Shown piece by piece: positions 6,226 to 55,850 of a DNA stretch of 64,000 nucleotides. How positions within the stretch are numbered: position 1 is the stretch's first letter; each line of letters opens with the position of its first letter. Source of the DNA: Acidimicrobiales bacterium (lineage in GTDB: Bacteria > Actinomycetota > Acidimicrobiia > Acidimicrobiales > Bin134); assembly GCA_965208785.1 (NCBI GenBank), contig OZ242356.1, positions 447,890 to 511,889 of the forward strand. Reading direction: 5' to 3'. The notes under the pieces are model-generated. The model was not told where the DNA came from. It saw only the letters and a program-made list of their open reading frames with translations, and did no database searches. Made by a program: the position numbers and the translations under genes.

Positions 6226-6825
6226 ATGGCTGACCAAGCCACTTTTGCCGACCAGGCCATGGTCTACATGGACCAACTCTACTCGGCGGCCCGGCGTATG
6301 ACCCGCAATGCAGCAGATGCCGAAGACCTGGTGCAGGAAACCTACCTGCGGGCCTACCGCGGCTTCGGCAGCTTCCAGCAGGGCACCAACCTGCGGGCCT
6401 GGCTGTTCCGCATTCTCACCAATGCGTTCATCAATTCGTATCGGAGCAAGCAGCGCAAGCCGAAGTCGGTCGATTTGGCCGATGTCGAGGATCTGTATCT
6501 GCACCAGCGACTGGCGGGCGACGTTCGGGCCGCGCTGGGGGCCAGCGCCGAAGACGTGCTGATGGATTCGATCACCGAGTCGGAGATCGTGGACGCCCTG
6601 GAGTCGCTGCCCGAGGAGTACCGGATAGCCGTGCTGTTGGCCGATGTAGAGGGTTTTGCCTACAAGGAGATAGCCGAGATACTCGGCATTCCCATAGGAA
6701 CGGTCATGAGCAGGCTCCATCGGGGAAGAAAAACACTCCAAAAGCGGTTGTTAGAGTTCGGAACAGCGCGGGGCTGGGTGGCCCAACCCGGTCCCGCCCA
6801 AGCGCCGGCTGCGGCTGGCCAGTGA
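6226..6825 (+). CDS. sigH: ECF sigma factor, SigH/SigR family
   Basis: [39 protein letters not shown]. Confidence 0.88.
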
Positions 6826-6842
6826 TTTTCGGAGGCACCGCG

Positions 6843-7127
6843 ATGAGCAGAGACCGGCCTTGCTTGGGGGTTCCCAACCAGTGCGATTACTCGCGCGAGC
6901 TCATCGCAATGGCTCTGGACGGGCAACCGACACTGGAGGGCCTCAACCGGGCCCGAGCCGAACTGGGCGACTGCCTCCCGTGCGCGCAAGCTCTCGACGT
7001 CGAGGTTCGCTTCAAGCTGGCCATGAACCAGGCCGGACGAGTATCGGCGCCCGCCACCTTGCAAACCCGCATCACCGAGACCCTCCAGCGCGTCGAGCTA
7101 GATGATCTGGGCATCCAAGACTTCTGA
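6843..7127 (+). CDS. Anti-sigma factor, RshA/RsrA-like, with atypical ZAS motif
   Basis: Downstream of sigH, GGAGG RBS, ExxxCxxC in place of HxxxCxxC, APATLQTRI C-terminal motif. Confidence 0.75.
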   Translation: MSRDRPCLGVPNQCDYSRELIAMALDGQPTLEGLNRARAELGDCLPCAQALDVEVRFKLAMNQAGRVSAPATLQTRITETLQRVELDDLGIQDF

Positions 7128-7286
7128 GCGTGTCCCATCATCGACCTGGAAGACCATGTGGCTGACCAACTGAGATGATCTGGGCATCCAAGACTTCTGA
7201 GCGTGTCCCATCATCGACCTGGAAGACCATGTGGCTGACCAACTGAGATGATCTGGGCATCCAAGACTTCTGAGCGTGTCCCATCA
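7100..7286. repeat. R-S-R-S-R structure: three 41-bp repeats and two identical 32-bp inserts, period 73
   Basis: AGATGATCTGGGCATCCAAGACTTCTGAGCGTGTCCCATCA at 7100, 7173 and 7246; insert TCGACCTGGAAGACCATGTGGCTGACCAACTG. Confidence 0.97.
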
Positions 7287-7330
7287 CTGCCCGCGTGGAG
7301 TCGGCCCGAGCAGACCACTAGGGTGAGCGC

Positions 7331-7507
7331 ATGGAATTGATCGCGGCGGTGGTGTGGCACTGGTGGATCGCCCTGCTGCTGGTTATTGGCACGGTTCCTC
7401 TGGTCATCGCCACCATCGTCGGCTACTTCACCAAGGTGGTCGCACCCCGCTACAACAGTCGGCACCAGCGGGAAACCAGATCTCAGAGTGCCGCCGAAAC
7501 CGACTAG
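7331..7507 (+). CDS. Small membrane protein, 58 aa (not in ORF track)
   Basis: MELIAAVVWHWWIALLLVIGTVPLVIATIVGYFTKVVAPRY...; one hydrophobic segment; fills the gap before the next gene. Confidence 0.7.
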   Translation: MELIAAVVWHWWIALLLVIGTVPLVIATIVGYFTKVVAPRYNSRHQRETRSQSAAETD

Positions 7508-7525
7508 AAGCGACAGGATTCCCCG

Positions 7526-8614
7526 ATGGTTGCGGCGGCTGAGCCTGTCGACTGGCGGCTGGCGGAGCGAGTGGCCAAGAGAGTCGGGGGCCACGAGCCG
7601 TTTCTCGACTCCTACCACTACCGCAGCCTCACCCCCGAGCTGATCGAGCTGACCGCCCAAGCTGAGGAACTGGTAACCGCCGAAACCGGGCTGAAGTCAA
7701 CCGCGGGAGCGGCCCGGGCCCAGGTGACCACCCGAGCCCAATGGGTGGACGCCAACGTGGCCTCCTTCCAGCGGCTGCTGCGCCCGGTGACGGCCAAGAT
7801 GGCCGAGCGGGTGTCGCGCTCGTGGCTGGCCCCGGTTGCCCAGCGGGTGAGCGGCACCGAGGTCGGGGCGGTGCTGGGCTGGATGTCCACCCGGGTGCTG
7901 GGCCAGTACGACCTGCTCATCATCGAGGACGAGCGCCCCGAAGACCAGGACATGGTCTACTACGTGGGCCCCAACGTGATGGCCATTGAGCACAAGTACG
8001 GCTTCGACGCCCACCAGTTCCGACTCTGGCTGGCCCTGCACGAGACCACCCATCGGGCCCAGTTCACCGGCATCGAATGGCTGCGGCCCCACTTCCTGAG
8101 CTTGGTGCAAGAGGCCCTTGATGCCGCCGAGCCCGATTTGGAACACTTCAGGGCCGTGGCCAAACAGGTGCTCGAAGCCCGGCGGCGAGGCGACGACCTG
8201 CTGGCCGATGGAGGTCTGCCCGCCCTGTTGGCCACTCCCGAGCAAAAGGCGGTGCTGGATCGCATCGGCGGCATGATGAGCCTGCTGGAGGGCCACGGCG
8301 ACATCACCATGGACCGGGCCGGGGCCGGCCATATCCCCGACGCCAGCCGGTTTGCCCGGGTGCTGCGCCAACGCCGCAACTCGGCCAAGGGGGTGTCCAA
8401 GCTGGTGCAGCGCATTATCGGTATCGAGGCCAAGCTCAACCAGTACGCCGCCGGGGAGGCATTCATCGAGACGGTGGAGTCCCGGGGGGGCGCTGAGTTG
8501 CTCAACCGGGTGTGGGAGTCACCTGAGCGGCTTCCCTCCATGACCGAGATCCGCAATCCCCAGCAATGGATCGATCGGGTCAACGGCGCTCCCGTCCTCA
8601 CCGGGCAAGACTGA
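7526..8614 (+). CDS. Zinc-dependent metalloprotease/hydrolase (DUF2342-like)
   Basis: VLGQYD, LHETTH (HExxH), MSLLEGHGD; usual position before tilS. Confidence 0.88.
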   Translation: MVAAAEPVDWRLAERVAKRVGGHEPFLDSYHYRSLTPELIELTAQAEELVTAETGLKSTAGAARAQVTTRAQWVDANVASFQRLLRPVTAKMAERVSRSWLAPVAQRVSGTEVGAVLGWMSTRVLGQYDLLIIEDERPEDQDMVYYVGPNVMAIEHKYGFDAHQFRLWLALHETTHRAQFTGIEWLRPHFLSLVQEALDAAEPDLEHFRAVAKQVLEARRRGDDLLADGGLPALLATPEQKAVLDRIGGMMSLLEGHGDITMDRAGAGHIPDASRFARVLRQRRNSAKGVSKLVQRIIGIEAKLNQYAAGEAFIETVESRGGAELLNRVWESPERLPSMTEIRNPQQWIDRVNGAPVLTGQD

Positions 8615-8638
8615 CGTGCTGCCGGCGGTGCCGGTTCG

Positions 8639-9499
8639 ATGATCTCCGACCTGCTCGAACGCTGCGCCTTTCCCCCGGCTGGCGCCGCGGTACACTGCGC
8701 GGTTTCGGGCGGTCCCGACTCGCTGGCCCTGTTGGTACTGGCCTGCGAGGCAGGCTGTCGGGTGACCGCCTGGCACGTGGACCACGGGCTGCGGCCGGGG
8801 TCAGCGGCCGAGGCCGACATGGTGGCTGCGGCCGCCGCCCGATGGGGTGCGGACTTCGAAGCACGCAGGGCGACGTGCGAGCACGGACCCAACCTGGAGT
8901 CCCGGGCCCGAGCTGCCCGCTACGCAGTGCTGCCCGAGGGGGTTCTCACCGGCCACACTGCCGACGACCAGGCCGAGACGGTGTTGTTGAACTTCATCCG
9001 CGGGGCCGGGCCGAGCGGACTGGCCGGCATCGACCCGGCCCGCCGCCCGCTGCTGGCCATGCGCCGGCGCGAGACCCAAGCGCTGTGCAACCACCTCGGC
9101 CTAGAACCGGTGCAAGACCCGTCCAACCTCGACCCCACCCATCGCCGCAACCGAGTCCGCCATGAGCTGTTGCCGCTGTTGTGCGACATCGCCGATCGCG
9201 ACGTGGTGCCGATCATCGCCCGCAGCGCCTCGCTGATGGGCGGCGTCCGAGACCTGCTCGACGAGCTGGCCGCCGCCATCGACCCTGCCGACGCCAAGGC
9301 GATGGCCAACGCACCCGCGGCCCTGGCCCAAGCGGCGCTGCGGCGGTGGATCCAGCGCGAGACCAACGCCGAGCACCCGCCTGATGCCGCGACCATCGAG
9401 CGGGTCATGGCCGTGGCCCGAAACGAGGCCCGATCCACTGAAATTGGCGGAGGCTGGCGGGTCACCCGATCTTCCCAACGGCTCGGCCTCAGCAGATAG
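8639..9499 (+). CDS. tilS: tRNA(Ile)-lysidine synthetase
   Basis: AVSGGPDS PP-loop, HVDHGLR, GHTADDQAET, RNRVRH. Confidence 0.95.
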   Translation: MISDLLERCAFPPAGAAVHCAVSGGPDSLALLVLACEAGCRVTAWHVDHGLRPGSAAEADMVAAAAARWGADFEARRATCEHGPNLESRARAARYAVLPEGVLTGHTADDQAETVLLNFIRGAGPSGLAGIDPARRPLLAMRRRETQALCNHLGLEPVQDPSNLDPTHRRNRVRHELLPLLCDIADRDVVPIIARSASLMGGVRDLLDELAAAIDPADAKAMANAPAALAQAALRRWIQRETNAEHPPDAATIERVMAVARNEARSTEIGGGWRVTRSSQRLGLSR

Positions 9500-9510
9500 G
9501 CGCCACTAGG

Positions 9511-10077
9511 TTGACCGCCGTGTCCAGCGCGCCAGACCGCGGCAGCGGCGACCCCGGCCCGGTCCTCATTTCCCACGATGAGCTGACGGCCTGCATCGCC
9601 GACCTCGGCGCGCACATCACCGCCGACTATCAGGGGCGGGCGCCGCTGCTGGTGGGCGTGCTCAAGGGCGCCTTCATGTTCATGGCCGATTTGGCCCGGG
9701 CCATCAGCCTGCCGGTGGAGTTCGACTTCATGGCGGTGTCGTCGTATGGAAGTTCCACCCGCACAAGCGGCGTGGTGCGCATTGTCAAAGACCTCGACCT
9801 CGACCTGGCCGGGCGCGACGTGATCTTGGTGGAAGACATCATCGACAGCGGCCTGACCCTCAACTACCTCCGCAAGAACCTTGCCGCCCGCAACCCGGCA
9901 AGCCTGGAGGTGTGCGCTCTTTTGATACGCAAGGGCCGTCAGTACGAAGACCTCGACCTGCGTTACACCGGCTTTGAGATCCCGCCCGACTTCGTGGTCG
10001 GCTACGGCCTCGACGTCGGCGAGCGCTATCGCCAACTCCCCCACATCTGCCAGTACCAGCCAAACGGCAACTCATAG
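9511..10077 (+). CDS. hpt: Hypoxanthine phosphoribosyltransferase
   Basis: VGVLKGA, VEDIIDSGLTL, FVVGYGLD. Confidence 0.97.
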   Translation: MTAVSSAPDRGSGDPGPVLISHDELTACIADLGAHITADYQGRAPLLVGVLKGAFMFMADLARAISLPVEFDFMAVSSYGSSTRTSGVVRIVKDLDLDLAGRDVILVEDIIDSGLTLNYLRKNLAARNPASLEVCALLIRKGRQYEDLDLRYTGFEIPPDFVVGYGLDVGERYRQLPHICQYQPNGNS

Positions 10078-10091
10078 AAATAACTGAAATA

Positions 10092-10117
10092 CATCTTGCT
10101 TTTGCGAGCAAGGTGTG
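10092..10117 (+). terminator. Stem-loop after hpt
   Basis: ACATCTTGCT-TTTGCG-AGCAAGGTGT inverted repeat; no U-tract. Confidence 0.4.
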
Positions 10118-10177
10118 GCAGATTGAGGACATCGGAGCGACTCTACGGCTCCCTCCCCAACCTTTTGGGCACAACTC

Positions 10178-10891
10178 ATGCGGATGGCAAGCGAGGATCG
10201 CCGCCGACAACTGCCCTGGGTGGCACTGGGGCTGACCGTCACCCTCACCGCAGCAATCATCTTCGCCCTATGGGCGTCGTCGCTCAGCAATCGAACTGCG
10301 GTGGCGGTGGCGGCCCGTGACATCGCCGGCGGCTCGATGGTCGACATCGGCGACCTCCGAGCCGTCGAAGTGGCCAGCGGACAAGGGGCGGGGTTTGTGC
10401 CGATGGCCGATTTGGAGTCCGTCGTCGGTCGCACCGTCCGATCCTCGGTGCCCGAGGGGGCGATCCTTCACCCGGGCCTCCTGTCGGCAAGCACGCCGAT
10501 CGACCGGGGAAAGGCCGTGGTCGGCGTCGTGCTGCGACCGGGCGAATACCCGATTTCCCACCTCGGCCCAGGCCAGTTCGTCGGCGTGGTGGTTTTCGCC
10601 GACGAGCATCGCGAACCCAGCGCCGCGGCCGGCGACCGGCGGTTGAGTCGGGCTGATGGGCCCGACGCAGCCAACACCCTCATCCAGGCCGAGGTGGCCG
10701 AGGTGAGCAAGCTGCTCGACTCCGGCCAAGAGGCACTTTTTGTGTCGCTGTTGGCCTCGGCCGATGATGCTGTGCCCATCAGCAGGGCCGCTGCGGCCCG
10801 GGAGCTGCGCTTGATTCTGCTGCCCGAAGAATCCCGGCCGGCCAGCAGCCTGCTGAGCCCCGATCCAGCGCTGGCCGGAGCAGCACGATGA
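10178..10891 (+). CDS. SAF-domain/CpaB(RcpC)-like Tad accessory protein
   Basis: N-terminal TM, VAVAARDIAGG...DLRAVEV SAF motif; first gene of the Tad cluster. Confidence 0.75.
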   Translation: MRMASEDRRRQLPWVALGLTVTLTAAIIFALWASSLSNRTAVAVAARDIAGGSMVDIGDLRAVEVASGQGAGFVPMADLESVVGRTVRSSVPEGAILHPGLLSASTPIDRGKAVVGVVLRPGEYPISHLGPGQFVGVVVFADEHREPSAAAGDRRLSRADGPDAANTLIQAEVAEVSKLLDSGQEALFVSLLASADDAVPISRAAAARELRLILLPEESRPASSLLSPDPALAGAAR

Positions 10892-11634
10892 GCGTCATCG
10901 CGGTGGGGAGCGCCAAAGCCAGTCCGGGGGCGACCAGCCTCTCGGTTGGCCTCGGCCTGTCATGGGAAGCGATCACCGGGCGCCGAGCAGTTCTGGTGGA
11001 GGCAGACAGCGACGGCGGGGTTTTGGCGGCCCGCTTCGGGCTGGCCCTCACTCCCTCCCTGGTGGAGTTTTCCGGCACAACCCGACATGAGCTGACGATC
11101 AACCGGCTGGAGGCCAGCAGCCAACTGCTGGCCGGTCAATTGCCCGCCCTCGTCGCCCCTGGATGCGGAGAAACCACTGCTCTGGTGCTGGACTCGATGG
11201 CAACTCGATTGGCCGACGGCCTTGGCCGCCTCGACGACATCGACGCCGTAGTGGACATCGGACGGGTGCGGTCGCATTCACCTGCTGCTGAGTTGGTCGA
11301 CCGATGCGATCTGCTGGTGCTCGTTGCCCAACCTCAATTCGAACACCTTGTTCCGCTGGTCCATCAAGCCCGAAGAGTGGCCTCTCGCGACATTCCGACT
11401 GCACTGGTTTGCGTGGGCGACCGGCCATATCCGCCAACGGAGATGGCAAAGGCGTCCCAACTCGATCTTCTGGGGATCATGGCTCATGAGCCCAGGGTGA
11501 TTCAGGCACTGAGGGGCGGCCTGCCCGCCAACCGGCGCCACTGCCGGCTGTTGCTGTGGAGAACCCTGGGCGAGCTCGTTCAGCGGATCCACTACCGCGT
11601 GCAGTCCCCCGCAACCGGCCATGCGGTCGCTTAG
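10888..11634 (+). CDS. MinD/ParA-like (CpaE/TadZ-type) protein
   Basis: SAKASPGATS deviant Walker A, LVEADSDGG, VVDIGR. Confidence 0.75.
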   Translation: MSVIAVGSAKASPGATSLSVGLGLSWEAITGRRAVLVEADSDGGVLAARFGLALTPSLVEFSGTTRHELTINRLEASSQLLAGQLPALVAPGCGETTALVLDSMATRLADGLGRLDDIDAVVDIGRVRSHSPAAELVDRCDLLVLVAQPQFEHLVPLVHQARRVASRDIPTALVCVGDRPYPPTEMAKASQLDLLGIMAHEPRVIQALRGGLPANRRHCRLLLWRTLGELVQRIHYRVQSPATGHAVA

Positions 11635-11643
11635 GCAACGCCG

Positions 11644-12828
11644 ATGACCGCCTCCACGCACATCGACCGGGTGCTGGCCATGGTCACCAGTGAATTCGAA
11701 CGGGCGGAAGCGAGCCAGCTTGGTGATCGGCTAGCGCAAAAGGCCATGGCCGGGCAGTTCATTCTGGAGGCGCTCGACGCCATCGCCGCTGAGCGGGCAA
11801 AGGCGTTCTTGCCCCCTATCGACAGCGCCGAAGAGTCCTTCATCACCGAAGAGGTGCTGGCCACTCTGTTCGGGCTCGGATCCATAGAGCGGCTGTTGGC
11901 TGACGACTCCGTGGAGAACGTGAGCATCAACGGCCACGACACGGTTTGGGTACACCACGCCGGCGGGGTCAAGCGCCGGGCCGCCCCCGTAGCCAGTTCG
12001 GACGATGAGTTGGTGGCGCTCATCCGCAAGGCGGCTGCCCGGCTAGGCCGCAACGAAAGGCGGTTCGACCTTGCCAACCCGTTTCTTGATTTGCAGTTGC
12101 CCGACGGATCCCGTCTGAACGCGGTGATGGCGGTATCGGAGCGCCCGGCGGTGTCAATTCGCCGTCATCGCCACGAGCGGGTGACCCTGGACGACTTGTG
12201 CGAGCTGGGCACCCTCGACGAGGCGCTCCGAGACTTCTTGGGCGCTGCCGTGCAAGCTCGAAGGAGCATCATCATCTGCGGTGGAACCAACGCGGGCAAG
12301 ACAACGCTCCTGCGGGCCCTTCTGAACGTCTGCGACCCCGATGAGCGGCTGATCACCATTGAGGATCGGTTGGAATTGAGCCTGGCCGCCGACCCCGACC
12401 GGCACCGCGACGTGATCGAGATGGAAACCAGGACAGCCAACATCGAGGGTTCAGGTGGCATCACCATGCAGCAACTGGTGCGCAATGCCTTGGCCATGTC
12501 TCCCGACCGGTTGATTGTGGGCGAGGTGAGAGGTCCCGAGGTGGTGGACATGCTGGCCGCGCTGTCCACCGGAAACGACGGCTCGATGTGTACCATCCAC
12601 GCCAACTCGTCCCAGGCGGCTTTCAGCAAGATCGCCACCTACGCGCTGCGGTCCGCAGAGCGCATACCGGTAGAAGCCACCAACCGGATGATTGCTGAGA
12701 GCATCGACTTTGCGGTCCATGTAAGCAGAGGGCGCGACGGCCGTAGGCGAGTGAACTCGGTACGAGAGGTCACCGGCGCCTCGATGGGCGAAGTCAAAAG
12801 CGTCGAAGTGTTCAAGGACCAGAAATGA
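11644..12828 (+). CDS. tadA: Tad pilus assembly ATPase CpaF/TadA
   Basis: GGTNAGKTT, ITIED, MSPDRLIVGEVRG, TIHANS. Confidence 0.93.
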   Translation: MTASTHIDRVLAMVTSEFERAEASQLGDRLAQKAMAGQFILEALDAIAAERAKAFLPPIDSAEESFITEEVLATLFGLGSIERLLADDSVENVSINGHDTVWVHHAGGVKRRAAPVASSDDELVALIRKAAARLGRNERRFDLANPFLDLQLPDGSRLNAVMAVSERPAVSIRRHRHERVTLDDLCELGTLDEALRDFLGAAVQARRSIIICGGTNAGKTTLLRALLNVCDPDERLITIEDRLELSLAADPDRHRDVIEMETRTANIEGSGGITMQQLVRNALAMSPDRLIVGEVRGPEVVDMLAALSTGNDGSMCTIHANSSQAAFSKIATYALRSAERIPVEATNRMIAESIDFAVHVSRGRDGRRRVNSVREVTGASMGEVKSVEVFKDQK

Positions 12829-13712
12829 CCTCGCTGCTCGGAGCACTGCTAGGAGCCCTCGCGGGCAGCGGAATGTTCACAGCCATCATCGGCTGGCGAG
12901 GTCTGCCGCGGTGGTCGAAAAAGGGTGGCCTGCTGGTGCTTGAGAGGCTTCGGGGGCCAATTCCGCCACTGGCTCTCCGCTTGGCCATCGCGGGTGCGGG
13001 CTTCGTCGTCGGCACGGCGCTGACCGGATGGTTCGCGGCCGGGCTCATAGCCGGCATAGCCGGTTTCAGTTCGCCAACCGTCATAGGCGCCAAAGCAAGC
13101 CGAGACCGAGAGGTCGATCGTATGACAGCACTGGCAACCTGGGTGGAGATGGTGCGGGACACGACCAGCGCAGCATCAGGGTTGACCGAGACATTGAAGG
13201 CCACCGCGGCCACTGCACCGATGGCCATACGCATCCCGGTGCAGCAACTGGCGGCGCGAGCGGAACGGGAACCGCTGCCCGACGCTTTGGCCAAATTCGC
13301 CGACGAGGTAGACCACGGAGTCGCCGACAGCATTGCGGTCACGCTCCGACTGGCGGCTGCCAACCAAACGGGACCATTGCGGGAGACGCTGGCCGATCTT
13401 GCTGAGAACACCCGCCAAGAAGTCTCAATGCGATTGAGGATAGAGGCCTCTCGAGCCCGGCAATTCACTTCCGCCCGCTTCATCGCCGGCGTTGTGGCCG
13501 TGTTCTCCGTTGGCATGGTGGTCTTCAGCAGACCGTACTTGGCCCCCTACGACACAGCGTGGGGGCAGGTGGCCCTTGGCGTGATCGGCGCCCTCTTCAT
13601 CGGGTCGGCAATCGCCCTTGTGAAGATGGGCCAGTTCAACAGCCCGCCTCGAATCCTCGACATGCGGCAATCCCTTGAGGTCTCGAGCACAACCAGCGGG
13701 GGCCGGAGATGA
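12825..13712 (+). CDS. tadB: TadB-like type II secretion F-family membrane protein
   Basis: TM pattern, YLAPYDTAWGQ motif, follows tadA. Confidence 0.8.
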   Translation: MTSLLGALLGALAGSGMFTAIIGWRGLPRWSKKGGLLVLERLRGPIPPLALRLAIAGAGFVVGTALTGWFAAGLIAGIAGFSSPTVIGAKASRDREVDRMTALATWVEMVRDTTSAASGLTETLKATAATAPMAIRIPVQQLAARAEREPLPDALAKFADEVDHGVADSIAVTLRLAAANQTGPLRETLADLAENTRQEVSMRLRIEASRARQFTSARFIAGVVAVFSVGMVVFSRPYLAPYDTAWGQVALGVIGALFIGSAIALVKMGQFNSPPRILDMRQSLEVSSTTSGGRR

Positions 13713-14587
13713 CCGTCGGCCTAGCCCTGGGCACCGTGATCGGGCTCGGGCTCGCCGTGGTTTTCTGGGGGCTGTTCCCTCCCCGAGAACCGTTGCAGTC
13801 GCGGCTCAGCGAGCTCGATCGGCCAACGGACCAGCGCCGCCGAGTAGCAACGCGCCGCGAGAAGATCGGCCGCGCCGCAGTGCAATCGCTCAGACCCCTG
13901 GGATTGCGGGGTCGCCGGATCGAGCGCGACCTGCGAGTTGCCAGCCAAAGCCTCGAAGAACTGGCCGTCGCCAAACTGGGGATGATGCTGCTCGGCGCCG
14001 GACTGCCAGCGGGGATATGGATCATCGCCTGGTTCAGCCGAGCCTGGGTTTCTCCCGGCCTGGTGGCGGCGGCATCCACCCTGGGGGGAGCGCTGCTTTT
14101 CCTTGTCCCTGATCTGTCGTTGCGAGAAAGAGCCCGGAACCGGCATCGCGAGCTGCGCCACCAGATCAGCGTCTATTTGGATCTCGTGGGCCTTCACTTG
14201 TCAGGGGGCGCGGGAATGGAGCGGGCCCTGAGCGACTCGGCTGCGCTGGGCACTGCCTGGGGGTTTGTCGAGATCAAGCGGACACTGCGGCAAGCCCAAT
14301 TGTCCAACGAGCCGCCGTGGACTGCCCTGGAGAGACTGGGACGCGAGCTCGGCTCGGCAGAGCTCCAAGAGTTGGCCGCATGGCTATTGCTGGCCGGCAC
14401 GTCTGGATCCCGCGTGCGGTTGTCTCTGCACACCAAAGCCCGCGGCTTGCGAGAGCGGGCTCTGAACGAAGCGGAGACGGAGGCCCAGCAGTCCACAGAG
14501 CGCATGTCGCTGCCAGTCGTGCTCATGTTCTCGGGGTTTCTGGGACTGATCGGCTATCCGGCCATTGCCGCCATCGTCAGCTCATGA
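13709..14587 (+). CDS. tadC: TadC-like type II secretion F-family membrane protein
   Basis: YLDLV..LSGGAG, PPWTALERLG, TERMSLPVV. Confidence 0.82.
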   Translation: MTVGLALGTVIGLGLAVVFWGLFPPREPLQSRLSELDRPTDQRRRVATRREKIGRAAVQSLRPLGLRGRRIERDLRVASQSLEELAVAKLGMMLLGAGLPAGIWIIAWFSRAWVSPGLVAAASTLGGALLFLVPDLSLRERARNRHRELRHQISVYLDLVGLHLSGGAGMERALSDSAALGTAWGFVEIKRTLRQAQLSNEPPWTALERLGRELGSAELQELAAWLLLAGTSGSRVRLSLHTKARGLRERALNEAETEAQQSTERMSLPVVLMFSGFLGLIGYPAIAAIVSS

Positions 14588-14668
14588 GTGTCCGGGGACC
14601 CACAGTCCCGAGGCTTCCCCTTATCGGCGCATTGAACCGCCCCAACCAAAATCCCGTAGGAGACACAA

Positions 14669-14869
14669 GTGAAAACGGCATTCAAATTCCATCTTCTGGT
14701 TACCGCAGCGTGGGCCAAGTTCGAGCAGCGAGCCCACAAGGTCTGGCAAAGCGAGCGGGGCGACGTGACCTCAACGGTGATCATCATCGCGGTTCTCGTG
14801 GCCGCCGCGGTGGCCGCTGGCGTGGTCATCACAAGCTTCGTTTCCGGGCAGACCAGCAAGATCAGCTGA
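14669..14869 (+). CDS. Flp-type pilin
   Basis: 66 aa, ERG|DV prepilin cleavage site followed by a hydrophobic helix; AGGAG RBS. Confidence 0.75.
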   Translation: MKTAFKFHLLVTAAWAKFEQRAHKVWQSERGDVTSTVIIIAVLVAAAVAAGVVITSFVSGQTSKIS

Positions 14870-14980
14870 TCGACCGCAATGGGACCAGTCCGCCATTGGA
14901 ATGCGAGCGCGGCGAAGTCACTGCTGATCGACCGCAATGGGACCAGTCCGCCATTGGAATGCGAGCGCGGCGAAGTCACT
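14865..14980. repeat. Perfect 58-bp tandem duplication at the pilin stop / TadE start
   Basis: GCTGATCGACCGCAATGGGACCAGTCCGCCATTGGAATGCGAGCGCGGCGAAGTCACT at 14865 and 14923. Confidence 0.97.
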
Positions 14981-15331
14981 ACCACCGTTCTGGTCGTTCC
15001 CATTGCCATGTTCTTGATTTTTGTCGTTGTCCAAGCTGCTCTGGTCTTCCACGCCCAGGCCATTGTCGATGCCGCGGCCCAAGACGGCGCCCAGGCTGGT
15101 CAGGGCGAGACCGGCACGGAGGAAGCCGTTCGAACCGCGGTTCAGTCGGTTATCGGAACAAGCGCAGAGAACCTGCTGGCAAATGTAGAGGTCTTTGTCG
15201 ACACGGGCTCATCGCTGTCCTCGGTTACCGTTCAGGCCACCGTGAAGTCGCTGATCCCCGGATACGCCCCCGCGGTCTCGTCCACCGCGTCCGGACCCCG
15301 CGAGATCTTCATGCCTGAGAGCGCAAGATGA
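14879..15331 (+). CDS. TadE-like pseudopilin
   Basis: ERG|EVTTTVLVVP hydrophobic helix, AAAQDGA; start uncertain because of the duplication. Confidence 0.8.
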   Translation: MGPVRHWNASAAKSLLIDRNGTSPPLECERGEVTTTVLVVPIAMFLIFVVVQAALVFHAQAIVDAAAQDGAQAGQGETGTEEAVRTAVQSVIGTSAENLLANVEVFVDTGSSLSSVTVQATVKSLIPGYAPAVSSTASGPREIFMPESAR

Positions 15332-15777
15332 GAGGAGCAACTCGGTGGCCTCGACCAGCCCATGGGGCCGGTGAGCGAGGCAGCAGCGTGATCGGACTGG
15401 TGGTCCTCACCCCGGTCATGGCCTTGCTCTTTTTCTTTGTCGTAGCCGCCGGCCGAGTGGGTGTGGTCGAGAGCAAGTTGACCGCTGCCGCCCGCGGCGC
15501 GGCCCGCGCCGCCTCCCAAGCCAGGTCGACGGACGCGGCCCGCGCCGCGGCCACTGCGATAGCCGAGACCTCTTTGGGCCACTTGGAGGTGGAGTGCCAA
15601 GGCGGGCCCCAGGTTCGTGTTCTAAAGATGGACCTCCGGCCAGGAGGAAGAGTGCAGATTCAGGTTTCATGCACCGTGCGGCTGTCGGATCTGACCATCA
15701 CCGGCGTTCCCGGAAGCCGAATAATGACAGCAGAGTCTGCATCAGTGGTGGACCGCCATCGAAGCGGAAGCCAGTAG
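15328..15777 (+). CDS. TadE-like pseudopilin
   Basis: ERG|SSVIGLVVLTP, AARGAARAAS, C-terminal VVDRHR. Confidence 0.8.
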   Translation: MRGATRWPRPAHGAGERGSSVIGLVVLTPVMALLFFFVVAAGRVGVVESKLTAAARGAARAASQARSTDAARAAATAIAETSLGHLEVECQGGPQVRVLKMDLRPGGRVQIQVSCTVRLSDLTITGVPGSRIMTAESASVVDRHRSGSQ

Positions 15778-15779
15778 TC

Positions 15780-16241
15780 GTGTACCAGCGCAGATCTAAC
15801 AGGCGCTCCGGCTCGACGCCAGCACCGAGACACCGCCAACGGGGGCAGGTCACCGTGATGTTTGTCGTTTTGACTGTGGCACTGGTCATGCTCGGCGGAT
15901 TGGCATTCGACGGCGCCCAGATTTTGAATGCCAGACGGAAGGCCTCGACATTGGCCCTTGAGACAGCCAGAGCCGGGGCACAGGCAATCTCCATTGAATC
16001 GCTGTACCCGAAGCCGGCGACCGTGCTCGTTGATTCATCAAAGGCTCAAATCGCCGCGTCCGACTATTTGGGCCAGCACGATGACTGGTCGATCTCGGTT
16101 CGGGGCGACACGGTTTCAGCAACTGTGTGGCTGACCCAGCCCCTTCAAATCCTCTCTTTTCTGGGCATGGATTCACGTCGCGTAGCCGGCACCGCCACTG
16201 CCCGGGCAGTGCAAGGCATCCGAACAGGAGATGATCTATGA
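15780..16241 (+). CDS. TadG-like pilus assembly protein
   Basis: QRG|QVTVMFVV, GLAFDGA, ARAGAQ; start estimated at GTG 15780. Confidence 0.75.
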   Translation: MYQRRSNRRSGSTPAPRHRQRGQVTVMFVVLTVALVMLGGLAFDGAQILNARRKASTLALETARAGAQAISIESLYPKPATVLVDSSKAQIAASDYLGQHDDWSISVRGDTVSATVWLTQPLQILSFLGMDSRRVAGTATARAVQGIRTGDDL

Positions 16242-19200
16242 TCTCGAACGACGATCAACGCAAAGACCTCCTTCGCGGCCTGTCTTCAGCAGCGTTGCTG
16301 GCCGGTTTGCTGATAGGCGTCCCGACGCTCCTCATCTTTGGCGTGGGTTGGCCACTGCCCCAAGGAACGTCATCAGCCTCTGACGTAACCACCGCCATAA
16401 GAACTGGTGCGATTCCTCCTTCTTTCATTTCAAAGTCGATATCTTTTGTGCTGTGGATTCTCTGGTTGCAAATTCTGACCGGAGTAACAATAGAATTGTG
16501 GGCTCATTTCCATGGCCGGGTTGCCCCTCAAGTTGCGTTCCTCCCCCGATTTGTCCAAAGCCTATCGTCTCGATTTATAGGTGCAGCTTTGGCAATGATA
16601 TTTTCACTTCAACATCCCGGAATTGCAACGGCTGACAACCAAGAACTGCTGACTCCTACGATAAGCGTGATGGATGTCGACCACCAGATCGCAGAGGAAG
16701 AGCGTTCTCCGCACCCAGGGCATCAACAAGAAAGACTAAGGGTGCTCGCTGAACACTACTTGGGTGATCCAAGCAGATGGGATGAAGTATATGTGCTCAA
16801 CCAAAAACAAGAACAGATAGTTGATGAATCACTTACAGACTCAACGCGAATTCAACCAGGATGGAAATTCCTTATACCTGATGATACTCCCCTTCCACCA
16901 TTACTCGAATTGAAGCGCAACACGCCCGCTGCGAGTAATCAGCAGTTTGATCTCCAGTCAACCGATTCCGATACCATCAAGATCACGGTAAAGAAAGGAG
17001 ATACTCTGTGGCAGTTGGCAACTCACCATTTCGGTGACCCAAAAAAATGGGTAGATATCTATAATTCAAATCAGGACATAATTCAAGATCCCAACGTGAT
17101 CTTGCCTGGATGGGAGCTCCAATTACCTGCACATAATTCTAAGTTTGAAATATCATTGTTTGTGGAACCACTCACGATGCCAACTGCTAAACCTTCTGTA
17201 GAATTGTCGGACCACTCAACATCTGTTATGGCCTACACCACATCCAAAGCCTCCGTGGTAGCCAACGTTGCTTCGAACCGTGAACACGAACAACTCGAAT
17301 TGGCTCCGTCGGCAGCATCCCCGTTGGCGGCGACCAGCGTCGCTTCTCGCGGTGCCGACGAACCGTCTGCTCTCACCACGCAGACAGTGTTTGCGATCGG
17401 CGGTCTCGGCATGTTCGCCAGCAGCCTTGGCTGGATTTTGGCCCGTCTCTATCGAAGTCAACGTCGTCGCCTGCCAAGCGAACGCCTACTTGCTTCATCC
17501 ACAAGTGAAGCTGTCCAACTCGAACAGCAATTGCTGGATGCATCGGACACCGACAGTGCTCTTTTTTTGGACGCCTCACTGAGAGCTATGTCCATTCGAA
17601 TCGCTGGTCGCACCCCGCCCAAGATCATCGGAGTGATGTTGGATTCTGATGCCGTATCAATCTTGCTGGATGCTCCTGCTGAAGCGCCCAGCGGTTTCAA
17701 TGGCAGTGAAGACAACCTGATCTGGAGCTTTTCGAGAAGCGAGCGGCTGGAACATCTTCTGACGGAAGCCGAAGGCGTCTCCGCGCCACTCCCCACCCTG
17801 GTCTCTGTGGGAAAGAACTCCGATTCAGAGCTTTTGCTGAATCTTGAACATGTGACCGCTCTGAACCTCCAGGGTGATCCAGAGGCTATTGAGAAGTCGT
17901 GCGCAGCCATGGCCGTCCAGCTAGCCAGCAGTCATCTGGCCGATGACCTCACCGTGGTGTGTGTGGGTTTCGGCCAAGATCTGAGCGTCTTTGAACGGGT
18001 TGAATATGTACCTGATGTGGCCTCCGCTATCGGTCGTATCGCCCACCAACACCGTCAGAATCGAGCTTTGTCTGACAACCACGCTCCTTTCGCGATCACC
18101 CGAATGGGCAATGGCAGTGATTGCTCGCAACCTGCCGTAGTGATAATTCCCGGCGAGTTGGCCGGAGAAGAAGCCCGCCGTCTCCTGGAAGAGTGCGGGT
18201 CGTCAGTCTGCATCGCAGCCCACGGGCTGAGCGGTGCCACTTGGCTGGGGCAGTTCGATGACTACGGCCTTCTAGTGGAGCCAATCGGCCTGCGGCTAGA
18301 GCCTTACGGCCTATCAGCTGCGGCCGTCGCAGCCGTCGCTGAATTGGCCACTACTGCGGAAGACTCTCGTCGCACAAACCCGGCGGGAGATATACGCGCA
18401 ACACCGGTCGCTAAATTGGCTACCACTGCCCAAGACTCTCATGGGGTGGTGCCGGAAATGCCATCGGTACTGTCTCCGACAGATATCGAAGCACCCGCTC
18501 CCGTCCACGAACAACCGCCGATCGACGTGGAAGCCCGGGTATTGGGCGCCGTGGCGACATCGCAGATTCCAGAGCCCGCGCGGAGGCCGCCGACCGATGT
18601 GGAAGTCCGGGTGTTGGGCACCGTTGATGTGCTGGGCGCCGCGCAGTCGTTCACCTCCCGGCGAGCCCTCGATCTGGTTGCCTACCTGGCCTTCCACCCC
18701 GAAGGAGCCGACCGAGACCAGTTGAAAACCCATCTCTGGCCACCGGACGATCCACCCTCAGAGTCCACTCTTGCCAACACCGTGAGCCGAGCCCGCAAGG
18801 CGCTGGGAGTTGACGACAACGGCAAGCCGTACCTGCCCAGAGTAAGCCGGACGGGCATCTACCGATTGCGACCAGAGGTGGGAACCGACGTCGCCCGATT
18901 CGAAGAACTCGCTTCTGCCGCTCGCAGTGATGCCGGCGAACGGGGACGACAGCAACTGCAAACGGCATTGGAATTGGTGCGGGGCACTCCCTTCACCGGG
19001 GGCGGCGGCGAGATGTTCCGCTGGGCTGACTTCGGGTTGCGAACCCACATCGACTGCATGGTGGACACCACGGCCCACGAGTTGGCCGAACGGTGTTTGG
19101 AAGCCGGCGACCCCGAAGGGGCCCGAAGAGCGGTGATGACCAGCCTCCGGTTGGTGGGAGTGTGCGAGCAATGCTACCGCTGGCGGCTCATGGCTGCGGC

Positions 19201-19351
19201 GGAGAACCCCACTGAATTGCGCCGGATCATGGCCGAACTGCTGGGCTTGCTCCAGCGCGAGAGCGATCAGCCTGAGGCCGACAACCTGATCAGCCCCGAC
19301 TTGTTGGAGCTCTACGACCAATTGATGTCGGGCTGCATGGTACTCAGCTAG
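16238..19351 (+). CDS. Membrane protein with LysM domain(s) and C-terminal SARP-type wHTH/BTAD domain, 1037 aa
   Basis: TM helices; VKKGDTLWQLA...ILPGWELQLP LysM; second TM; VRVLG...LVAYLA...LWP...VSRARKALG and TDVARFE...ALELVRGTPF BTAD-like segment. Confidence 0.8.
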   Translation: MISNDDQRKDLLRGLSSAALLAGLLIGVPTLLIFGVGWPLPQGTSSASDVTTAIRTGAIPPSFISKSISFVLWILWLQILTGVTIELWAHFHGRVAPQVAFLPRFVQSLSSRFIGAALAMIFSLQHPGIATADNQELLTPTISVMDVDHQIAEEERSPHPGHQQERLRVLAEHYLGDPSRWDEVYVLNQKQEQIVDESLTDSTRIQPGWKFLIPDDTPLPPLLELKRNTPAASNQQFDLQSTDSDTIKITVKKGDTLWQLATHHFGDPKKWVDIYNSNQDIIQDPNVILPGWELQLPAHNSKFEISLFVEPLTMPTAKPSVELSDHSTSVMAYTTSKASVVANVASNREHEQLELAPSAASPLAATSVASRGADEPSALTTQTVFAIGGLGMFASSLGWILARLYRSQRRRLPSERLLASSTSEAVQLEQQLLDASDTDSALFLDASLRAMSIRIAGRTPPKIIGVMLDSDAVSILLDAPAEAPSGFNGSEDNLIWSFSRSERLEHLLTEAEGVSAPLPTLVSVGKNSDSELLLNLEHVTALNLQGDPEAIEKSCAAMAVQLASSHLADDLTVVCVGFGQDLSVFERVEYVPDVASAIGRIAHQHRQNRALSDNHAPFAITRMGNGSDCSQPAVVIIPGELAGEEARRLLEECGSSVCIAAHGLSGATWLGQFDDYGLLVEPIGLRLEPYGLSAAAVAAVAELATTAEDSRRTNPAGDIRATPVAKLATTAQDSHGVVPEMPSVLSPTDIEAPAPVHEQPPIDVEARVLGAVATSQIPEPARRPPTDVEVRVLGTVDVLGAAQSFTSRRALDLVAYLAFHPEGADRDQLKTHLWPPDDPPSESTLANTVSRARKALGVDDNGKPYLPRVSRTGIYRLRPEVGTDVARFEELASAARSDAGERGRQQLQTALELVRGTPFTGGGGEMFRWADFGLRTHIDCMVDTTAHELAERCLEAGDPEGARRAVMTSLRLVGVCEQCYRWRLMAAAENPTELRRIMAELLGLLQRESDQPEADNLISPDLLELYDQLMSGCMVLS
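18335..18440. repeat. Diverged 34-bp direct repeat around a 38-bp insert, period 72, in frame
   Basis: 18335-18368 vs 18407-18440, 29/34 identical (VAELATTAEDS / VAKLATTAQDS). Confidence 0.85.
18515..18624. repeat. Diverged 38-bp direct repeat around a 34-bp insert, period 72, in frame
   Basis: 18515-18552 vs 18587-18624, 33/38 identical (PPIDVEARVLGAV / PPTDVEVRVLGTV). Confidence 0.88.
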
Positions 19352-20775
19352 TGGTTGGTGCTGGGTTGGCCGCTCTCCGAGGAGCTTTGCCGCTCTCCGG
19401 AGGGGTTGGCTGCTCTCCGGATGCGGCGGCGGACCCACCAGATGACCGCAGCGATCACCGCAATGATGGGCAGGAAGGGCAAGAGCACACCGACAACGAT
19501 GAGGATCACGCTGAACACGGCCCTCACTCCGCTGGCGCCATCGGAGATTGAGTCACCGAAGCCGGGCAGCGCATCGTCGGTGTCGATCTGAACCCACACC
19601 ACCGACTCTTCCCACACCTCGTCTAGGGCAGTGCCGTCGAAGTCGACGGGGGTCGCGGTCACCTCCAGCTCAATGGGCAGTCCCCGGGTGGCCACCCGGC
19701 CGGCCAGCCGGCCCTCTTCGATGGGCAGTTCCAACACCGCAGCCATGAGGCCGTTGGGCTCGATGCGGTTGAAGCGGCCTTGGACAACTTGGAAGGAGTC
19801 CAGGTTCAAGCGCAGATTGCGGGTGCTCACCTTCACATCAGTGAGCGCCGAAGCGCCGGGATTCTCCACTTCGAGGCATAGGTAGACCTCGGCGTCGGAC
19901 TCCACGGTGAGGTTCTGCACGCCCAGGCACGGGTCGTCGGCGTCTTCAGACACCCAGGCAGTGACCACGATCCCGGTGTCGGGCAGCACGGTGGGCGATT
20001 GGGTGATGGCCAGGGTGATGGTGGCCAGATCAACCTGGTCTTGCAGGGTACGAAGCTGGCCCCGCAGCCGCTCCAGGGTGGTCTCGCGGTCGAGCAGCTC
20101 CCGCTCGAGCTCGGCCACGTCCTCGAGTCGGGTGGCTTCCTCAAGGAAATTCCGCAGGCGGTCGACACTGGCCTCGGCGGTGACGATACGGCTCCGCAAG
20201 TCGACAACAATCTCGGTCACATCGTCGGAGCTGATCCGCTGGTCGACCAGCTTGCCCACCCCTGACAGCCGCTCGAGCGCAGTGGAGAAGTCGGCGGGCA
20301 CCACCTTGAAGGTGATCTCGATGCGGGGCCGGGGTTCGGTGCGGGTGGTTTGGGAGAACACGATGCCGCCCAAACCCTGCACGATGGACACCGCTTCTCG
20401 GCTGGCCGCTTCCACATCGTCGGCCTGCACGGAGATCTCGGCGGTGTAGATGATGTCGCGGCCCAAATCAGCGGGGGTGAGAGCGGCGGGCACGGCCAAT
20501 CCTTCGCTGTCGAGCGAATCGGGCGATTCAACAGCCGCCTCTTCCGCGGCCATTGCTTCAACCATTGCCTCTTCTGCTGGGGCAGCCGCATCTTCCTCCG
20601 TTGCGTCAGCATCCACATCGAAATCGGCCGGTGCGTCCAAGGCCAGTGACATGTCATCGTCGCCGTTGGATTCGCAGGCGGCAAGAAGCGCACACAAAGC
20701 AAAGAGCACGGCCAGAAGCATGAAGCTGAACGTGCGCCGCCGAGATCTGTTTGGAGTGCGGTTTGCGTCGTGCAT
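19348..20775 (-). CDS. DUF4349-domain lipoprotein
   Basis: Lipobox LAAC, RDIIYTAEISV, DDVTEIVVDLRSRI coiled coil, C-terminal TM; start ATG 20775. Confidence 0.8.
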   Translation of the reverse strand: MHDANRTPNRSRRRTFSFMLLAVLFALCALLAACESNGDDDMSLALDAPADFDVDADATEEDAAAPAEEAMVEAMAAEEAAVESPDSLDSEGLAVPAALTPADLGRDIIYTAEISVQADDVEAASREAVSIVQGLGGIVFSQTTRTEPRPRIEITFKVVPADFSTALERLSGVGKLVDQRISSDDVTEIVVDLRSRIVTAEASVDRLRNFLEEATRLEDVAELERELLDRETTLERLRGQLRTLQDQVDLATITLAITQSPTVLPDTGIVVTAWVSEDADDPCLGVQNLTVESDAEVYLCLEVENPGASALTDVKVSTRNLRLNLDSFQVVQGRFNRIEPNGLMAAVLELPIEEGRLAGRVATRGLPIELEVTATPVDFDGTALDEVWEESVVWVQIDTDDALPGFGDSISDGASGVRAVFSVILIVVGVLLPFLPIIAVIAAVIWWVRRRIRRAANPSGERQSSSESGQPSTNH

Positions 20776-20901
20776 GGTGATCCTCCCCGTGAGTGGTGAC
20801 AGATATGACGAAAGCCAAGCTCGCTGAGTTCCCCGAGCGATCAACGAAACTGTGGCCGCGGTGGATACCCTCAAAGTATCGGAGGTGCGGCTGACGACAC
20901 A

Positions 20902-21453
20902 GTGCTGGTGAATAGAGCCCGAAAGGGCGACCAGGCCGCGTTCGATGCCCTGCTGCGGCGGCACTACAACCATATCTACGCCATCTGCCGACGGCTGGCC
21001 GGCAACGAGGCCGACGCACTGGACGCGGCCCAGGAGGCGCTCATCACCCTGGTCCGGCGCATTGACCGTTTCGACGGGCGCTCGAAGTTCACCACTTGGA
21101 TGCACCGGGTGGTGACCAACGCCTGCCTCGACGAGCTGCGGCGGCGGGGCCGGCGTCCGGTGCCGTCGCCCGTGGAGGAGCAGCCCCTGGCGGCTGTCGA
21201 GCGGCCGGTGGCCGAATCGGCAGGCGACCGGGTGGACATCGAGGCCGCCCTGGCCCAGCTCCCCGAGGCGTTCCGGGTGCCGGTGGTGCTGTGCGACCAG
21301 CTAGGACTCACCTACGAGGAGATCGCCGAAGAGATGGACATCGCCATTGGGACGGTCCGGTCCCGCATCTCCCGGGGACGTCGGCGCTTGGCCGAGCTCT
21401 TGAGCGGGAACCCAGACAACCCCAGCCAACGTCACACTGGGGAGAGACCATGA
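20902..21453 (+). CDS. ECF sigma factor, SigM-like
   Basis: DALDAAQEA, FDGRSKFTTWMHRVVTNACLD, GTVRSRISRGR; position upstream of trxB. Confidence 0.88.
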   Translation: MLVNRARKGDQAAFDALLRRHYNHIYAICRRLAGNEADALDAAQEALITLVRRIDRFDGRSKFTTWMHRVVTNACLDELRRRGRRPVPSPVEEQPLAAVERPVAESAGDRVDIEAALAQLPEAFRVPVVLCDQLGLTYEEIAEEMDIAIGTVRSRISRGRRRLAELLSGNPDNPSQRHTGERP

Positions 21454-21548
21454 ACGACGAACGCGGCCACATGACCCTTCCAACATCGGCCAAATGGACC
21501 ACCCGGCTGCGGAAAAGACCATGAACGACGAACGCGGCCACATGACCC
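21445..21548. repeat. 33-bp direct repeat around a 38-bp insert, period 71
   Basis: AGACCATGAACGACGAACGCGGCCACATGACCC at 21445 and 21516. Confidence 0.95.
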
Positions 21549-22543
21549 CGCAGGAACTCGACGAGTTGGCCTCCGCCTATTTGGACGGGGAGGCCACGGC
21601 GGAAGAGGCCGTCCTGGTGGAGAGCGACCCCCCCTTGCAGACGCTGGTGGAGGAGCTCCGGACCGTGCGGGATCTGGTGGCCGAACCGGCCGAGCTGCCC
21701 TCCGACGAAGTACGCGACCAGATGATTGCCCGCGCACTCGACCACCGCGCTCCGGTTGTGTCGCTGGAAAAGGCCCGACACCAGCTGCGGACCGTTGCTC
21801 CGCAGGCCAGGGTGGTTCTGGCCGCGGCTGCGGTGGTTGCGGCCATAGCCGTGGTTGGTGTGACCATTTTTCAGAGGCAAGGCAGCGAATTGGCCGACGA
21901 CGACATGGCCTCAGCTCCCGCGATGGCGGATGCGCCGGCCGATGTTGAACCTGAAGCACCTGCGCCCGTTCCCGCCGCCGAGCCCGAAAGCGCAGATCTT
22001 GTCGAGGAATCGCTCCCCGCCGCCGACGCCGAACCCCCACAGCCCGACATAGCCGCCGACGCCGAACCCCCACAGCCCGACGATCTCACAGAACCAGAAG
22101 AGGAGGCTGCATCCGAGGATCATGCCGTGGCCCAGCGCGAGTCTCTGTTCGATGAACCGGCGGAAAGCCTCAGCGTCGAGCTAGTCGAGCCCCAGGCGAT
22201 GATGGCGGACGAGGCAGAAGTAGCGCCAACCTCGGACGGAGCAACCTTGGTGTTTGAAACCACCGCCGATCTCGCCGCCCACGCCATGCAGCTCGCTGAG
22301 GAGCAGCATGATCCTGTGGTCATCGAGCGGCTGGATGAGGCTGCTGCCACCGACCTCATGGGCTGCCCGCTGCTGCTTGACGATGGACTCGAGCTGCTGG
22401 CCCGATTCGACGCAATCGTGGATGGCGTCGAAACCCAGGTATCGGTGTACTTGACTGTGAGCGACTTGCAGCTCGCTGAGACAACGCCGCCCCCCGAGTG
22501 CGAGCTGCTCGATTCCCACAGCCTCCTCGACTGGTCGGAGTAG
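21521..22543 (+). CDS. Putative membrane anti-sigma factor
   Basis: ELASAYLDGE N-terminal motif, single TM, acidic extracytoplasmic tail; follows the ECF sigma factor. Confidence 0.75.
   Translation: MNDERGHMTPQELDELASAYLDGEATAEEAVLVESDPPLQTLVEELRTVRDLVAEPAELPSDEVRDQMIARALDHRAPVVSLEKARHQLRTVAPQARVVLAAAAVVAAIAVVGVTIFQRQGSELADDDMASAPAMADAPADVEPEAPAPVPAAEPESADLVEESLPAADAEPPQPDIAADAEPPQPDDLTEPEEEAASEDHAVAQRESLFDEPAESLSVELVEPQAMMADEAEVAPTSDGATLVFETTADLAAHAMQLAEEQHDPVVIERLDEAAATDLMGCPLLLDDGLELLARFDAIVDGVETQVSVYLTVSDLQLAETTPPPECELLDSHSLLDWSE
22019..22081. repeat. 33-bp in-frame tandem duplication
   Basis: GCCGCCGACGCCGAACCCCCACAGCCCGAC at 22019 and 22052 (AADAEPPQPD x2). Confidence 0.92.
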
Positions 22544-48325: not shown

Positions 48326-48345
48326 AAAGAGGCAGGATAGTGGTA

Positions 48346-55738: not shown

Positions 55739-55850
55739 GTCCAGCCTAGATGGGCCGGTACTGTGGGCCCATGGATGAGCTCGGCCGGCGCGGGCGGCCC
55801 CTCCGAGACGGTCCAGCCTAGATGGGCGGTACTGTGGGCCCATGGATGAG
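55739..55850. repeat. 41/40-bp direct repeat around a 31-bp insert, period 72
   Basis: GTCCAGCCTAGATGGGC(C)GGTACTGTGGGCCCATGGATGAG at 55739 and 55811. Confidence 0.95.

Follow-up and report, generated by a model that had tools for sequence, protein, structure and literature searches.

A repeat-insert array at a gene end in an Acidimicrobiales genome: probable scar of ectopic type I-G spacer integration

The window analysed here is a 64,000-nucleotide stretch of the genome of an Acidimicrobiales bacterium (GenBank assembly GCA_965208785.1, contig OZ242356.1, positions 447,890 to 511,889), and it contains at 7100-7286 an array in which the end of a predicted anti-sigma gene (repeat A) alternates with an insert (B) derived from a pheA gene. 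With a probability of about two in three, this array is the scar of an ectopic, that is off-target, spacer integration by Cas4/Cas1-Cas2 of a type I-G CRISPR system, followed by duplication of the resulting unit. The array repeats a 73-bp unit 2.56 times, at 100% identity and with 0 indels, and is laid out as A-B-A-B-A, where A is 41 bp, B is 32 bp and the period is 73, which confirms the repeat-spacer-repeat-spacer-repeat order with identical spacers given in the initial annotation of this DNA. The copies of A occupy 7100-7140, 7173-7213 and 7246-7286, the copies of B lie between them at 7141-7172 and 7214-7245, all on the + strand, and the third A is followed by the ancestral right flank (CTGCCCGCGTGGAGTC...). 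A comprises the final 28 nt, stop codon included, of the open reading frame (ORF) at 6822-7127, plus 13 nt downstream, and this ORF comes after a gene for a SigH-type extracytoplasmic function (ECF) sigma factor at 6226-6825 (236.7 bits to TIGR02947). The repeat had earlier been taken for the 3' end and stop codon of the anti-sigma gene; its position at the gene end stands, while the RsrA identity of the ORF is weak (33.8 bits, under the cut-off of 62.5).

All 9 of the 9 aligned relatives from the same genus have one A joined directly to the right flank and no B, and a second comparison likewise found the flanks of the array meeting through a single A in same-genus relatives; this lineage has therefore gained 146 bp, twice the sum of B and A. 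Slippage acting on unique DNA yields whole-number copies, so the 41-bp remainder here calls for an earlier A-B-A stage, at which a foreign B would have been inserted and the target A duplicated. A slippage-born tandem repeat of the variable number tandem repeat (VNTR) kind was accordingly rejected, given 2.56 copies with a 41-bp remainder, an ancestral state of A alone and a B brought from elsewhere. The identity of the two inserts points to a later duplication of the unit and not to a second capture, and there is no divergence among the three copies of A. Together, the local duplication, the empty site in relatives and the identical inserts support the earlier proposal that an insert was captured from a pheA allele and the unit was duplicated afterwards. 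The target-site duplication is a perfect 41 bp, or 37-38 bp if TCA or ATCA is counted with the insert, compared with a native CRISPR repeat of 36 bp; its actual length is probably 37-38 bp (7100-7136/7137), the last 3-4 nt being equally assignable to the insert. Correspondingly, the insert measures 32 nt as unique sequence, 35 nt as the stretch matching pheA and 36 nt with a mismatch at its first base, compared with native spacers of 36-38 nt.

The structure was also checked against contigs that came from three studies, with four further public runs, and were aligned over 6500-22500; runs labelled as sponge metagenomes served the structure check only. Contig pieces stop at 7129 in X2, X3 and X16 and resume at 7257 in X2, X3 and X4, and one piece of X3 covers 7111-7202 as 92 nt with 0 differences. 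The break points 7129 and 7257 are those that a k=31 graph would produce if A has two left and two right neighbours, and on these contigs the structure at 7100-7286 appears genuine and not an assembly error. In X3, the depth of the inner 92-nt piece is 33.1, compared with 33.6 and 33.8 for the flanking pieces, and this equal depth hints that X3 may carry one insert copy, although contigs themselves cannot give copy number.

The insert together with the preceding TCA (7138-7172) is the reverse complement of 47549-47583 at 31/35 positions, within the minus-strand ORF 47378-48598, whose PDT and ACT domains make it pheA. All four mismatches are transitions, of which three are synonymous third-position changes (GAG/GAA, GCC/GCT and GAT/GAC) and the fourth changes Gly to Asp (GGC/GAC), so that the match described in the initial annotation is confirmed by sequence comparison. 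The match is unique of its kind in the 3.5-Mb genome (E 9.2e-6, with the next best at E 0.06), no better match outside pheA was found there, and by chance the 32-mer would not be expected in the window even if up to 3 mismatches are allowed. Extended to 36 nt, B copy 1 with 7137-7140 (7137-7172, +) has as its counterpart a protospacer-like stretch of the resident pheA at 47549-47584 on the minus strand, which is 31/36 identical, lies in the ACT-domain region and encodes LIDLEGHVADQL. Directly 5' of this stretch on the coding strand is TTC (47585-47587, -), and TTY is found there in 30 of the 30 genus pheA orthologs examined. The TTC thus sits one base upstream of the 35-nt match, with exactly 36 nt from it to the last base of the insert. 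In the accessible text of PMC6547450, spacers acquired by the Cas4/1-Cas2 of Geobacter sulfurreducens type I-G (then called I-U) are reported to be mainly 36 bp and to have an upstream TTN protospacer adjacent motif (PAM). The TTC at the pheA site agrees with this motif of the G. sulfurreducens type I-G system, and the earlier suggestion that TTC resembles a type I PAM gains substance from the type I-G system of this genome and from the exact 36-nt distance.

The donor of the insert is probably not the resident pheA 40 kb away, because the synonymous differences of the insert are natural states in relatives and the copies of A remain undiverged. The GAA, GCT and GAC states all occur in the pheA of relatives, and one genome of the genus, G048, carries all three; none of the 30 pheA orthologs exceeds 31/36 identity, a value reached by the resident gene and by G048. 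On this basis the insert resembles a genuine allele from a relative not yet sampled and not a resident copy that has decayed. The initial annotation had allowed for either an older self or a related strain as the source, and the synonymous states in relatives favour the related strain and speak against the resident gene.

A complete type I-G locus lies ~550 kb from the array and comprises Cas3g, Cas8g1/Csx17, Csb1, Csb2, Cas4g/Cas1g and Cas2. The Cas4g/Cas1g fusion is full length, has no stop codons and scores 782 bits against a cut-off of 560, while Cas2 scores 40 bits against a cut-off of 24.5. The genome holds a single Cas1 and a single array, which adjoins the locus and contains 16 intact repeats and one degenerate repeat of 36 bp, 15 read spacers of 36-38 nt and a period of 72-74, so that the period of 73 at 7100-7286 falls within the native range. 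The native spacers had no self match in the genome, and no match was found between the native array and a phage collection, nor between viral contigs and three native-spacer patterns and one ectopic insert (0 matches each). Native spacers 2 and 4 (C1:1009019-1009055 and C1:1009164-1009200, in genome coordinates) have overlapping, slightly different targets (19/22 identical, offset 15), which suggests that related invaders were sampled repeatedly or by primed acquisition; within spacer 2, the three bases that immediately precede the point where spacer 4 begins are TTT, the single internal datum for a TTN PAM. In the last native repeat (C1:1010071-1010106), the hairpin loop and part of the 3' half are replaced by a long C run, which reflects either degeneration of the terminal repeat or an assembly error at a homopolymer. 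Cas4/Cas1 itself (C1:1006814-1008433) differs from residues invariant in 11 genus orthologs by K99R, E238D and P399S (numbering of the matched region); these substitutions are conservative and none is an obvious catalytic residue, and they may offer a lead to loose integration in this lineage.

By its period, the array at 7100-7286 belongs to a family of units with the same geometry across the genome. A whole-genome scan was made for isolated perfect direct repeats with A of at least 28 bp, d being the start-to-start spacing, and it returned 50 isolated structures, 44 of them with d 30-100. Thirteen loci fall at d 71-74, eight at exactly 72, with none at 67-70 or 75-83, an excess with P = 5.7e-7 under a uniform null over d 30-100 for the 44 structures, and a mismatch-tolerant scan reproduces the peak. 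In the 13 loci, A is 29-41 bp and the insert is 32-44 bp, mostly as 36/36, 37/35, 34/38 or 37/37. Their A sequences are all different and each is local, and the inserts are unrelated to their own A and have no source in nearby DNA; of 14 inserts in the d 71-74 range that were examined, the pheA-derived one alone matches the genome. Two identical inserts are present in 3 of the 13 loci (the present array, 975832 and 3471817), which fits a later duplication of the unit. Most of the 13 units are located at gene ends or between genes, a placement that can be interpreted as what selection would leave behind. Besides, 7 of the 13 period-72 units fall within 0.55 Mb (C1 1.54-2.09 Mb), and no origin or terminus to which this cluster could be related stood out clearly in the cumulative GC skew. 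A target motif was sought among the duplicated targets and none was found.

Empty sites, that is a single uninterrupted target in relatives, were found for 8 of the 13 loci, the present array included. Another of these is a second unit in the window at 21445-21548 (C1:469334), with A at 21445-21477 and 21516-21548 (33 bp each), an insert of 38 bp at 21478-21515 and a period of 71; it straddles a gene end and has an empty site in 5/5 relatives. The X16 contig breaks at 21474 and 21519, and the X2 and X3 contigs run ungapped through this unit with scattered substitutions, including in the repeat copies, from which it follows that the unit predates strain divergence. At C1:1540671, the empty site is present in the 4/4 relatives having both flanks, and the relatives also have empty sites with a 36-37-bp overlap at C1:1729321, C1:2007491 and C1:2091977. 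The units at C1:2476718 and C1:3471817 had seemed shorter, and beside relatives they are 36-bp duplications with one mismatch, the empty site with a 36-bp overlap being found in 5/5 relatives for the former and in G007 for the latter. The other five loci (975832, 1620769, 1640612, 1761790 and 3336569) were not assessable, their flanks being not conserved or rearranged. The insert of C1:1640612 matches a conserved gene of relatives at 31-32/35 and the resident ortholog at 29/35, and it points in the same direction, towards a non-self donor. A 24-bp direct repeat at spacing 71 also occurs in the window at 55756-55850; with one indel, its repeat is ~40 bp and its insert ~30 bp, and it may be a member of the d 71-74 family or of a looser class described below.

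The proposed course of events at 7100-7286 would be as follows. The Cas4/Cas1 fusion and Cas2 would have taken a ~36-nt prespacer from the pheA allele of a related bacterium, beside a TTC PAM, and two staggered strand transfers ~37 bp apart would have placed it at the end of the RsrA-like gene in place of the leader-repeat junction. Gap repair would then have copied those ~37 bp on either side of the insert, giving a repeat-spacer-repeat, and the unit could subsequently have been doubled to A-B-A-B-A, either by slippage or by unequal recombination at the long direct repeats. As the first A retains the stop codon of the gene, the insertion would be harmless or neutral, and the unit is not expected to yield CRISPR RNA (crRNA). 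In favour of this account count the native type I-G system with its period, the genome-wide family, the empty sites, the TTC with its 36 nt in pheA and the allele-like differences of the insert. The extension of this account to the whole family, as a natural burst of ectopic adaptation in which type I-G Cas4/Cas1-Cas2 left at least 13 scars at repeat-unlike sites, mostly gene ends, with two traceable inserts from chromosomal genes of related bacteria and three units expanded to two spacers, is given slightly better than even odds.

Several observations count against spacer integration. The exact donor was not located: allowing up to 3 mismatches, the 35-mer occurred in 0/39 other genus genomes, and an IUPAC (International Union of Pure and Applied Chemistry) pattern covering both alleles had 0 matches in large collections of genome contigs and metagenome contigs. 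The Gly to Asp change of the insert lies in a conserved EGH motif and is present in 0/30 pheA orthologs. A 36-nt spacer would mismatch every pheA seen at its first base (A vs C or T), a 35-nt spacer would set the PAM one base off, and the layout is 41/32 and not 36/36, which requires that 3-5 nt at the junction (TCA or ATCA) be common by chance or through microhomology. In the relatives seen, the counterpart of the 1640612 insert is not flanked by TTN. The duplicated targets match the native repeat at a mean of 13.7 of 36 positions, and random 36-mers also give 13.7; the P. furiosus off-target sites described in the accessible text of PMC6698737 resembled the repeat, unlike the targets here. 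Within the genus, Cas4g/Cas1g is over the family cut-off in 15/40 genomes and no Cas1 was found in 16/40, and the type I-G arrays seen there all have repeats of ~36 bp (34-36 bp shared in the fetched loci) and periods of mostly 70-76. Control scans covered 0.796 Mb each of G001, G048 and the same span of this genome. G001, which is without Cas1, had 0 units at d 55-74, and this genome had five at d 71-74 and five at d 55-70, a contrast that counts in favour of integration. G048 had 0 at d 71-74 and two at d 55-70 in spite of its type I-G system; possession of the system does not by itself produce units, and the units are a trait of this lineage.

A second mode of isolated units at d 59-66, with ~17 loci over d 55-66 (e.g., 1557407, 1726924, 1862629, 2299037 and 1258379), repeats of 28-37 bp and inserts of ~30-32 nt, also tells against integration; the B of the present array is likewise 32. 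There is a minor but real chance that the 41/32 locus belongs to this looser class and has its period of 73 by accident. The second-mode units are nearly absent from the two relatives sampled, and at two of them, 2299037 and 1557407, no clean empty site was found, the former lying in a variable intergenic region and the latter adjoining a multicopy element. A second CRISPR type behind the d 59-66 mode was considered and rejected, for the relatives' other Cas1 loci have periods of 71-76 and there is one Cas1 and one array here; the insert of 941710, of the d 55-66 class, was likewise rejected as captured DNA, its match being a low-complexity paralog.

These looser units are part of what speaks for a duplication with filler that is independent of CRISPR, an explanation that is unlikely and still carries appreciable weight. 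According to it, a break or template switch at the gene end copied ~40 bp together with a 32-35-nt pheA-like filler through TCA, slippage followed, and the period of 73 is coincidental. Perfect tandem arrays with a period of at least 20 number 31 in this genome, and several have the form A-b-A-b-A with 5-18-nt fillers. At C1:2770269-2770376, a gene junction with overlapping stop and start (ACTGATGG), 32 bp plus 6 nt occur twice and G010 and G001 have a single copy; relatives also have a single A at C1:1633775. Moreover, an independent duplication of ~35 bp with a 14-nt filler is present at the 2770269 junction in G009 (L212), a genome in which no Cas1 was found. This junction seems to be a hot spot for such filler-bearing duplications, and a CRISPR-independent route to the A-b-A-b-A topology therefore exists in the genus. 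The 41/32 layout with its 3-nt microhomology suits this route as well. It leaves without explanation, however, the 13 units at d 71-74, with their ~36-bp duplications at the native period, and the TTC at 36 nt from the end of the insert; in addition, a donor other than the resident gene does not fit an intramolecular template switch, and the inserts do not come from nearby DNA.

The other explanations fare worse. The initial annotation had considered a mini-array or an RNA pairing with pheA, in which the unit would be transcribed from the anti-sigma operon, processed and paired with pheA DNA or RNA. The repeat-spacer-repeat layout downstream of a transcribed gene, the match to pheA of the PAM-proximal 13 nt after the first base and the TTC PAM at the resident pheA would agree with such a function, which is nonetheless very improbable: A matches the native repeat at 16/36 positions at best (random mean 13.7), lacks the native 7-bp G/C hairpin and has a fold no stronger than that of shuffled sequences (z -0.27), searches for Rfam families and for promoter- or terminator-like sites were negative, the relatives have no unit, and there is no leader, a coding gene lying upstream, and two identical inserts in place of several different spacers. 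A working self-targeting crRNA would be harmful to the cell through type I interference. Scarcely credible is an ordinary tandem repeat with a chance likeness to pheA, or an assembly artefact. Tandem repeats are many in this genome and contigs cannot show copy number, but the match has an E of 9e-6 genome-wide, three of its four differences are synonymous and equal to natural alleles, slippage is expected to give whole-number copies and not 2.56 with a 41-bp remainder, and the junctions recur in runs of other samples and studies.

Other duplications were recorded in the course of the scans. The window has perfect tandem duplications at 14865-14980 (58 bp x2), 22019-22081 (33 bp x1.9) and 28367-28439 (36 bp x2.0), and the contigs of the other runs break at 14894 and 14951, as a real 58-bp duplication predicts. 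At C1:858815-859019, a 102-bp unit is doubled in tandem and has seven further exact copies around the genome, and it probably belongs to a mobile or repeated element.

Off-target spacer integration is a known kind of event, and the present array may be filed as a natural case of it. Nivala, Shipman and Church reportedly observed in 2018 that over-expressed type I-E Cas1-Cas2 of E. coli integrated spacers off target and thereby created 'neo-CRISPR' loci. The accessible text of 10.1101/148544 presents the evidence for off-target integration in natural genomes as circumstantial and from two species, and the neo-CRISPR work is also cited in the accessible parts of PMC7054753, PMC6698737 and PMC11788318. 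As far as these sources go, the two cases would have in common a spacer-sized insert outside an array, a local duplication about one repeat long and an active-looking Cas1-Cas2. They differ in that the present case is natural and not over-expressed, belongs to type I-G with a Cas4/Cas1 fusion, involves at least 13 loci in one genome with empty sites in relatives and some units expanded to two spacers, has targets that are not repeat-like, and has traceable inserts whose sources are chromosomal genes in related bacteria. In the G. sulfurreducens type I-G system of Almendros et al. 2019 (PMC6547450), Cas4/Cas1 is likewise fused, spacers are mainly 36 bp and the upstream PAM is TTN, which fits the TTC with 36 nt at pheA and the native spacers of 36-38 nt; that study describes integration at the leader-repeat junction, and the term 'off-target' does not occur in the accessible part of its text. 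Canonical and orphan CRISPR mini-arrays show the same regular alternation of repeat and spacer at a period of ~73 bp, whereas here the repeat is a host gene end that is single in relatives, the spacers are identical, and there is neither a leader nor a Cas6-type hairpin. VNTR-like tandem duplications with filler share the A-b-A-b-A topology, in this genome and genus with fillers of 5-18 nt; unlike them, which have no preferred period, the period family of the present array peaks sharply at the CRISPR unit length. Within a literature search of limited scope, no report turned up that describes many such scars in one natural genome, or any for type I-G.

For the annotation of the window, the 'mini-array' at 7100-7286 would be a neutral scar and not a gene or a regulator. 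If the integrase reading is true, the genome-wide family would be more interesting than the single locus. It would be evidence from nature that adaptation carries a mutational cost and is able to start new repeat-spacer loci, and it would supply genuine off-target sites of a Cas4/Cas1 fusion system. This system would be sampling chromosomal DNA from related bacteria, and the scars would form a readable record of the foreign DNA taken. Moreover, such units would represent the first steps in the de novo birth of a CRISPR-like array in the wild.

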